NCBI GenBank assembly: GCA_036130055.1
Contig: JAYYOR010000027.1
Location: forward strand, 121,532-185,531
From: Pseudomonadota bacterium
GTDB taxonomy: Bacteria > Pseudomonadota > Gammaproteobacteria > Ga0077536
DNA: 64,000 nucleotides
Direction: 5' to 3'
Shown here: positions 46,260 through 47,932 of the stretch, piece after piece
Layout: each line of letters starts with the position of its first letter
Position numbering within the stretch: position 1 is the first letter of the stretch
Program-made: the position numbers and the translations under genes
Notes under the pieces: model-generated
What the model saw: the letters and a program-made list of their open reading frames with translations, nothing else
Database searches by the model: none
Told to the model about the DNA's origin: nothing

Positions 46260-46302
46260 TATAACTAAAAACTGTATTTTTATTTTATTGTTTAGATAAC
46301 AA

Positions 46303-46329
46303 AAAAGGGGGCTTTGTTGAGCCCCCCGC
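46303..46329 (-). terminator. Rho-independent terminator (reads on the minus strand) downstream of the ttcA remnant
   Basis: On the minus strand: GGGGGC-tcaacaaa-GCCCCC followed by TTTTTT. Confidence 0.5.
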
Positions 46330-46527
46330 GATCGGTTGTGTCATCAACCGCTTTGTCAATTAACCTAGTTCACAATCATTGCTGACTGCGAAACAAATAC
46401 TCTGGCTGACTGACACAATATCCATATCACTAGACATTGGATCACCTCCTTTTAACGTATTTAAAGGTATATTATATGACCTTTTCTGCAAAGATTTAAA
46501 TATTTATTTTTAAAAACTCCTTCTCTC

Positions 46528-47352
46528 TTAGGAAGAACTACTAGTACCCAACTTCAAACCACACTTATCGAGACTAAAGTCGAAGAGAAATGTATCTGCG
46601 AGATTTGATGGCACTAAGGCGAAAAAGCCTAAAATATCGGTTTTTCGACCTGGTTGCTCTTTTCTCAATTAGTAATCAATTTTTTATTCTCTTTCGTTGT
46701 AAGTATTCTTGGTAGCCATATTGGTCACAAGGTATCATCAGAAGAGACTGTTGACTTGAATAAAAGAAAATGTCTTTTTCGAAACAGTAAAAAAGCGGTC
46801 TAATCACTATATTTTATACATCGTCGCTTAACAACTTAGGAGGCATCGCTTTCAAGCTCGAGACATAAAAGATATTTAAAAACAGAGTTCCAATTATATC
46901 ATCTAAGTGATGTCCGAAAGCTGTTTTTATAGATCCGCTGTCTTTTACAACTCTGTATATAAAACCGCCTTTAAACGTGAACAAAGTCTACAATAAGCCT
47001 TATTCTCATCAATGTTATCCGTCACAATTGAGAAAGTATTCTGCTTCTCTATAAGGTAATTCACCTTATCGTCATCTAGATATTTTCTCATTACACCATT
47101 CGGGCAATTCGGCTGTCCTTAATCTAAATAAAAAGCAGTGGTTTCAAAATGTACCGATGCTTTCAGACTTATTTCTGTTAGTAATTTTAGTAAAGTAAAA
47201 AAGTCTTTTCCTCCTGACAAGCAAACCATAATCTTATTCCGCTCTTTTATCATTTGATAATCTTCATTAACACTACCAATGTTCCTTCTCAATCTTTGCT
47301 TCGTTTTGGTTTCGGAAAGATTTTGATTTTTTACAAAAAACATATATCGCAC
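46528..47352 (-). pseudogene. ttcA: tRNA 2-thiocytidine synthase TtcA (PP-loop ATPase) disrupted by multiple frameshifts or stops
   Basis: Only a 77-aa N-terminal ORF (47119-47352) survives, with 'KQRLRRNIG...IMVCLSGGKDF'. Downstream, three other frames carry collinear TtcA-like segments: '[56 protein letters not shown]', then '[24 protein letters not shown]...MPPKLLSDD*', then 'IVIRPLFYCFEKD...IPCDQYGYQEYLQRKRIKN*', then '...ADTFLFDFSLDKCG'. All follow the E. coli TtcA order. Confidence 0.6.
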
Positions 47353-47452
47353 GGTTCAATGTGTTAGTCTTTTTTTCTTTTCTATCCTCATCTCAATGTA
47401 TTAATATAGAACAAAATTTTTTGACGAAATACAAAATGGCGGGCTCCCTCGA

Positions 47453-47932
47453 GTGACTCATCGATTTAGAATACCCCTATCATCAATAAAGTGGATTGTA
47501 ATTCTGACTATTTTGAACACTTTATCAAACAAAGGAAACACTGAGCCAGTATACACCTCCTTCGATAATCAATTTGAAAAAGGTTTATATTATTACGACA
47601 AATCTCATTTTAATGAATCAGCCGAAATATTTAGCGAACTTACACTAAGATATCCTTCCTGCTATAGGTGTATTTACCTTAAGGGTAAAAGCATAGGAAG
47701 ACTAGCAAGTAGAGCCAATTGGTTTAGAGCTATACAATTGGCGCCTAAAACCCGCAAATGTTTTGAAAAGGCCCACTTGATTAATCCAAATGATAATGAG
47801 GTTCTTGGTGACCTAATAAAATACTATGAAAGGGCTCCGGGTTTTCTGGGTGGAGACAAACGAAAAGCGGAGGCCCTTAAAATCAAATTCTTAGAACACA
47901 CAAAACGTTTAAAATGGAAGCCAAATGATTAA
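47453..47932 (+). CDS. Hypothetical secreted protein (possibly TPR-like)
   Basis: 159 aa with an N-terminal hydrophobic signal. No confident family. Confidence 0.35.
   Translation: MTHRFRIPLSSIKWIVILTILNTLSNKGNTEPVYTSFDNQFEKGLYYYDKSHFNESAEIFSELTLRYPSCYRCIYLKGKSIGRLASRANWFRAIQLAPKTRKCFEKAHLINPNDNEVLGDLIKYYERAPGFLGGDKRKAEALKIKFLEHTKRLKWKPND

Follow-up and report, generated by a model that had tools for sequence, protein, structure and literature searches.

The window analysed here is the whole 64-kb stretch of DNA, and its minus strand carries, at 46528..47352, an ordinary pseudogene of a known gene, ttcA. The product of ttcA is the tRNA cytosine-32 2-sulfurtransferase. The remnant still spans ~94% of the 879 nt of an intact gene, and its GC content is 33.9%, compared with 38.7% for the window and 35–36% for intact orthologues. 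Its landmarks, in the order in which the gene would be read, are as follows.

46528..47352, minus strand: whole ttcA pseudogene remnant (tblastn, stitched-profile score and synteny)
47119..47352, minus strand: N-terminal open reading frame (ORF), 77 aa from a GTG start, 234 bp (ORF list)
47200..47217, minus strand: degenerate PP-loop SGGKDF where SGGKDS is expected (homologue alignment)
47119..47121, minus strand: premature TAA at an invariant Gln codon, polymorphic (codon alignment)
46969..46992, minus strand: first CxxC, CRLCSRLK, retained (tblastn and motif reading)
46975..46977 (~46976), minus strand: first 1-nt deletion, position approximate, right behind the first CxxC; reading moves from frame A into frame B (codon alignment)
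46915..46898, minus strand: GHHLDD (motif reading)
46846..46832, minus strand: MPPKL (motif reading)
46814..46816, minus strand: second premature stop, TAA, just before IVIRPL (codon alignment)
46715..46729, minus strand: degenerate second CxxC, CDQYG where CNLCG or CDFCG is expected (alignment, with PMC4081106 and PMC6082896)
46695..46696, minus strand: second 1-nt deletion, position approximate, from frame B into frame C, common to sibling-species contig L024 (codon alignment)
46665..46667, minus strand: TGA replacing an invariant Trp codon, the third premature stop, common to L024 (codon alignment)
46660..46662, minus strand: third 1-nt deletion, position approximate, from frame C into frame A again, common to L024 (codon alignment)
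46573..46587, minus strand: C-terminal LFDFS (motif reading and tblastn)

Judged from the letters of the remnant, its resemblance to TtcA is far above chance. When the ttcA translation from the annotated E. coli K-12 record was searched against the window by tblastn, three collinear HSPs with a joint E of 2e-51 covered residues 9–134, 131–224, and 233–262 at 43–52% identity, and the 64 kb held no second TtcA-like match (all others E ~1.5 or worse). A stitched translation of the remnant, spanning the frameshifts and with stops entered as X, scored 294 bits against the NCBIfam equivalog NF007972 (‘tRNA 2-thiocytidine(32) synthetase TtcA’; TtcA family group I), whose cutoff is 272. Searched singly against Pfam, the five ORF fragments of the remnant gave no meaningful match. 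The initial annotation had taken the region for a ttcA gene decayed into a multi-frameshift pseudogene, and these scores, together with the reproducible lesions described below, bear it out. The 77-aa N-terminal ORF with SGGKD that it described is present and contains MVCLSGGKDF; an alternative ATG at 47343, three codons into this ORF, gives 74 aa. Motif reading and tblastn likewise confirm that CRLCSRL, GHH..D, MPPKL, IVIRPL, and FDF follow one another in TtcA order, with IVIRPL retained between MPPKL and CDQYG. Two of its details need correction. The stretch after the 234-bp ORF measures 591 bp and not ~750 bp, and the CRLCSRL region, labelled a zinc finger, corresponds to a CxxC of TtcA, a motif that binds a [4Fe-4S] cluster (PMC4081106).

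Set beside the TtcA proteins of E. coli, Salmonella, and P. aeruginosa, the remnant runs collinear with E. coli residues 9–262 and keeps the PP-loop core, the first CxxC (CRLC at 46992..46981, counterpart of the Fe-S ligands C122 and C125 of E. coli), GHH.DD, MPPKL, IVIRPL, and LFDF. In contrast to them, its frame is broken six times, its PP-loop ends in Phe, and a ligand Cys of the second CxxC is gone. The final Ser of the PP-loop SGGKDS is invariant in 121 intact TtcA homologues, and the invariant RR after the first CxxC has become KG. The second CxxC reads CDQY, the ligand Cys having been replaced by Tyr. The Fe-S ligands required for activity are C122, C125, and C222 in E. coli TtcA (PMC4081106), and the ligands of the P. 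aeruginosa enzyme are C115, C118, and C206, the last within C203-N-L-C206 (PMC6082896). By equivalence with this P. aeruginosa motif, the Cys lost from the remnant is probably the third Fe-S ligand; in the K-12 translation used here the motif is C210-N-L-C213, a numbering unlike the C222 of PMC4081106.

The lesions were mapped by codon-aware alignment to an intact orthologue from contig L014. Three 1-nt deletions spread the coding sequence over three reading frames and three premature stops interrupt it, as had been suspected from the scattered motifs, and the remnant holds no uninterrupted ORF of ~270–310 codons. Ten codons lie in the third frame between the second and third deletions. An in-frame 3-nt deletion is placed at ~46631, and the tail is uncertain. 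Of 99 TtcA columns that are at least 97% conserved in the 121 intact sequences, 19 are changed in the remnant, and intact TtcA controls show a mean of 0.4 changes and a maximum of 5 at the same columns. The remnant cannot encode TtcA.

The same damage is found across ocean samples. Contigs were gathered by exact-protein look-up of the neighbouring TraB and of a 99%-identical variant, and the population was compared by BLAST projection onto the window. Fourteen contigs from various Tara, JGI, and ENA samples and assemblers are 99.1–99.7% identical to the window over up to 9 kb, and 9–10 of them span the remnant. At the three frameshift sites these spanning contigs agree with the window without any indel, and each of them also has the second and third stops. 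Contig L020 has CAA (Gln) where the other contigs have the first TAA (47121), and it has also lost 1 nt at 47188, within the N-terminal ORF, a deletion private to this contig. Since L020 keeps CAA, the first nonsense mutation is younger than the frameshifts and is not fixed; the differences of L020 are decay still under way. The 74/77-aa fragment ORF forms a protein cluster of 16 members, with more than 45 contigs on record. The decay of this gene is unusually well documented because many independent ocean samples carry the same damage.

A sequencing or assembly problem had been offered as the alternative, i.e., ttcA would be intact in the organism and the indels and stops would be errors of a metagenome-assembled genome (MAG). 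The window does come from a MAG, in which its contig measures 219,899 bp, and error-type broken genes do occur in long-read assemblies of a sister lineage (L010–L013). However, the recurrence of the three frameshifts and stops in 9–10 contigs from different samples and assemblers excludes such a problem, and the truncated ORF on more than 45 contigs also counts against it. Additionally, three of the lesions are base substitutions, 19 invariant residues are replaced, and the 3′ lesions are common to the sibling species, which makes an artefact extremely improbable.

Between the remnant and traB lies a small-RNA unit that is separate from ttcA, with the following parts.

46296..46500, minus strand: CC2171-like small-RNA unit (Rfam scan, folding and conservation)
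46500..46471, minus strand: promoter-like TTTAAA-18-TATAAT (sequence reading)
46452..46438, minus strand: AAAGGAGGTGATCCA, a 15-nt perfect complement of the 16S rRNA 3′ tail (sequence match)
46437..46360, minus strand: AUG-UCU and a 25-codon ORF (ORF reading)
46327..46306, minus strand: intrinsic terminator hairpin (terminator reading)

This unit accounts for the terminator and for ~230 nt of the 1.2-kb ORF-free stretch that the initial annotation had attributed to the decayed gene. The gap at 46260..47452 is indeed the longest ORF-free gap of the window. The minus-strand hairpin noted just downstream of ttcA is present, but it lies 200 nt beyond the remnant and ends the separate unit. The 175-nt transcript has a predicted fold of −62.2 kcal/mol (z = −5.9). 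The unit is also present where ttcA is intact, and it is near-invariant across the sister clade, whose proteins are 57–73% identical to those of the window; in the single hairpin that varies, pairing is maintained by way of G-U intermediates and two to three double changes.

Relatives of the window organism were arranged by a search with TraB. The window species, with TraB 99% identical to that of the window, has a decayed ttcA. The sibling species represented by L024–L026 has TraB 93–94% identical and also a decayed ttcA, of which the 3′ part is seen in L024. The sister clade, which includes ‘Methylococcaceae bacterium TMED69’ (GTDB UBA11654 according to a preprint on the TMED69 MAG), has TraB 65–69% identical, with ttcA intact in six lineages and truncated in one. 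The intact genes, all of 292 aa, belong to the L011-type, L014-type, and L030-type (TMED69) lineages and to L154, L156, and L157, and they answer the question, raised with the first reading, of whether the gene is intact elsewhere in relatives. They stand at the same position as the remnant. The window and the intact-ttcA contigs have in common the order lactamase-B, thiolase, HAD hydrolase, orf160 (divergent), ttcA, small RNA, traB, orf112, groEL-groES, and in the intact-ttcA contigs a small 32-codon ORF is called between ttcA and traB. With the same flanking genes in six lineages, the remnant is a positional orthologue of a genuine ttcA. The intact sister-clade genes (L010–L017, L030–L033, L154–L157) occupy the same slot between orf160 and the small RNA-traB pair and are the nearest recorded sequences to the window copy, at 56–58% amino-acid identity. 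Unlike the window copy, they are uninterrupted, are 79–100% identical to one another, and are 53–63% identical to outgroup TtcAs, whereas the remnant, at 45–48%, is ~10 points further from every outgroup.

Two observations on these contigs stand apart from the fate of ttcA. In L010–L013, which are long-read, pilon-polished assemblies of ~0.3–1.9 Mb, the genes for traB, groEL, thiolase, aldolase, and a sarcosine-oxidase-like protein are split at differing places; these splits are typical long-read indel errors, non-reproducible, and call for care if the contigs are used as references. The divergent gene orf160 adjoins the remnant at 47453..47932 on the plus strand and encodes 159 aa. This 159-aa ORF had no family match, is 47% identical to its counterpart in the sister clade, making it the least conserved flanking gene besides orf164, and its start is called variously among contigs, giving 139, 159, or 178 aa.

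The intact relatives also bear on whether a second ttcA elsewhere in the genome keeps s2C32 while this locus is itself a pseudogene. Among the best 120 of 7745 matches to the stitched protein, the closest relatives of the remnant were intact 292-aa proteins 56–59% identical to it, followed by a tier at 47–52% that includes Porticoccaceae TtcA. Within those best 120 of 7745, every close intact TtcA that was traced to a contig proved to be the syntenic sister-clade locus, and no closer intact copy surfaced. Additionally, ttcA is single-copy where examined, and P. aeruginosa PAO1 is without a paralogue (PMC6082896). Judged from these matches and from 64 kb of the genome, a compensating second copy is improbable, and the remnant is better read as what is left of a single-copy-type gene.

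Contig L024 dates the loss. Of the region preceding traB it includes just the final 445 nt, in which it has the TGA and the two 3′ 1-nt deletions of the window together with indels of its own. Because the 3′ lesions are common to L024, the gene was inactivated before the window species split from the sibling species with 94%-identical TraB. Aligned to L024, the window remnant shows 81.8% identity and 7 gap columns; for traB the identity is 94.4%, with third positions diverging by 9.6% and second positions by 2.3%, and for the neighbouring small RNA it is 99.4%. Among contigs of the species itself, the remnant has 15 SNPs, whose distribution by ancestral codon position is 5:4:6, compared with 12:8:58 in the flanking genes and 0:0:24 in groEL (third versus first plus second positions, remnant versus flanks: Fisher p = 0.014). 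At 18 SNPs per kb, the remnant is no more variable within the species than the third positions of groEL or traB, so that within-species diversity alone is weak evidence for neutrality, and the case for neutrality is carried by the inter-species comparison with L024. The remnant evolves without coding constraint.

These data also decide against programmed recoding, in which frameshifting and stop read-through would still yield a full-length, active TtcA. The collinear order of the fragments is what it has in its favour, and nothing further. Ribosomes would have to shift frame three times and read through three stops of two types. The rest of the window consists of dense standard-code ORFs, and both the first stop and one further deletion are polymorphic. 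The remnant offers no single conserved shift site with a downstream frame under selection, its SNPs lie without coding constraint, and two key residues, an essential Cys that binds the Fe-S cluster and the Ser of the PP-loop, have gone (PMC4081106, PMC6082896). The probability of recoding is therefore close to negligible, and the region is a pseudogene, neither an artefact nor a recoded gene.

A second, different loss of ttcA is found in L027/L028 (GCA_001757125.1, MDTD01028464.1). TraB of L027 is 87% identical to that of TMED69 and 69% identical to that of the window, which places L027 inside the sister clade. Its truncated ttcA (L027:4392..4752) retains codons 186–292 only; a clean 565-nt deletion, with short GAAAT repeats at its ends, took the start codon and codons 1 to ~185, and what is left has three in-frame stops and a Cys-to-Tyr change. 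Like the window remnant, this dead ttcA occupies the same locus, has in-frame stops and a Cys-to-Tyr replacement, and lies beside an intact small RNA; unlike the window remnant, it has undergone a large deletion, and it has none of the window lesions. Since L027 lacks the window lesions, ttcA died at least twice in the clade.

It is also conceivable that the gene is dead but that its DNA or the 74/77-aa ORF has been kept for a new role, such as promoter or upstream context of the small RNA or a PP-loop mini-protein. The remnant is still ~94% full length in an otherwise compact window, the decayed L027 locus keeps the 3′ portion that adjoins the small-RNA promoter, and the N-terminal ORF is treated as protein-coding by gene callers and in GenBank. 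However, this ORF has the Ser-to-Phe change in its sole motif and is frameshifted in L020, the 3′ part of the remnant outpaces traB third positions in divergence between the sibling species and gains indels while the small RNA and its promoter are conserved, and L027 demonstrates that most of the gene can be deleted. A new role is accordingly very improbable compared with plain decay.

We hold with high confidence that the region is a true, non-functional remnant of a single-copy-type ttcA in an uncultured marine gammaproteobacterium (locus tags VX086_), and that it drifts neutrally and has not yet been deleted; a loss of s2C32 would probably follow from its inactivation. Neutral drift has since left it with three nonsense codons, three deletions of 1 nt and one of 3 nt, and numerous replacements at catalytic and invariant sites. 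With no TtcA made, cytidine 32 of the tRNAs that normally bear s2C32 would stay unthiolated, and the loss would be tolerated because the modification is dispensable. In E. coli the tRNAs concerned are Arg-ICG, Arg-CCG, Arg-UCU, and Ser-GCU. The DNA itself would be heading for deletion, as has already befallen the 5′ two-thirds of the gene in the L027 lineage; the remnant can be regarded as awaiting deletion because L027 has already lost most of the gene. Previous work indicated that an E. coli ttcA deletion strain is without s2C and that ttcA is among the non-essential tRNA modification genes (bioRxiv 10.1101/2024.11.12.622971). Given that TtcA makes s2C32 and that ttcA is dead here, the tRNAs of this organism are most likely without s2C32 and the loss tolerated, a view that draws on established knowledge of the enzyme and on 64 kb of the genome.

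Two independent inactivations occurred among the ~9 lineages sampled, i.e., point-lesion decay in the window clade and the 565-nt deletion in L027. Whether ttcA loss is recurrent, and possibly favoured, in the streamlined surface-ocean UBA11654-like clade is a tentative suggestion that we consider rather doubtful. If true, it would fit selection, or fully relaxed constraint, against an oxygen-labile [4Fe-4S] tRNA thiolase in iron-poor oxic water, and a possible advantage of the loss would be that, where surface water is poor in iron, the cell is spared an Fe-S enzyme sensitive to oxygen. In that case the clade would offer a natural experiment on the purpose of s2C32, whose physiological function had gone unreported until the P. 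aeruginosa study (PMC6082896). Two losses in one clade together with intact relatives make the role of s2C32 approachable by comparative genomics. The single locus matters little, as pseudogenes of dispensable tRNA-modification genes are to be expected. Nonetheless, the population data offer an internal standard for neutral change in a marine bacterium that is abundant and uncultured, with a dead gene diverging at or above the synonymous rate beside a near-invariant 175-nt RNA.

There is also a consequence for annotation, as the fragment ORF pollutes protein databases and the locus should carry a ttcA pseudogene annotation. The 74-aa fragment (47122..47343) is GenBank MEC8148036.1 (VX086_05730), a ‘hypothetical protein’ with no pseudogene flag. 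Its neighbours in the window are entered as MEC8148035 (traB), MEC8148038 (HAD hydrolase), and MEC8148039 (thiolase).

The small RNA beside the remnant belongs to a wider set of elements. In a permissive Rfam scan it matched RF01867 (CC2171) over the full length of the model at 21.6 bits (E = 0.0096 on a 311-nt search), below the gathering threshold of 75 bits. CC2171 is an alphaproteobacterial sRNA of unknown function whose expression was validated in Methylorubrum (bioRxiv 10.1101/2022.01.24.477521). The window copy resembles it in the 5′ GAAAGGAGGUGAUCCA-RUG-UCU element, the full-length model match, and the 3′ intrinsic terminator, but it is sub-threshold and its middle part is unrelated in sequence. 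The 25-codon ORF matched no known peptide family in Pfam or NCBIfam, and when entropy was followed along 49 alpha-type copies, no clear 3-nt periodicity was seen. At least 120 loci (L034–L153), from soil, freshwater, and marine samples, came out of a metagenome scan for AAGGAGGTGATCCANTGTCT. That the small RNA is functionally linked to ttcA was considered and rejected, as no other listed locus (at least 120) adjoins a TtcA or TraB homologue. Across these loci (at least 120), AAGGAGGTGATCCA-NTG-TCT marks widespread terminator-ended elements of ~150–190 nt, which fall by their first codons into the subtypes SHC, SYT, SRV, SSD/SSE, and others, with a common 5′ element and a GGAAGGG-type terminator region. 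The Rfam CC2171 threshold was passed by 2 of the 17 loci tested, both of the GC-rich alpha ‘SHC/SHS’ subtype, and not by the others or by the clade copies. Among the matches listed, GC-rich loci mostly have G immediately before UG, several other loci have A, and this base might track the 16S 3′ tail of the host.
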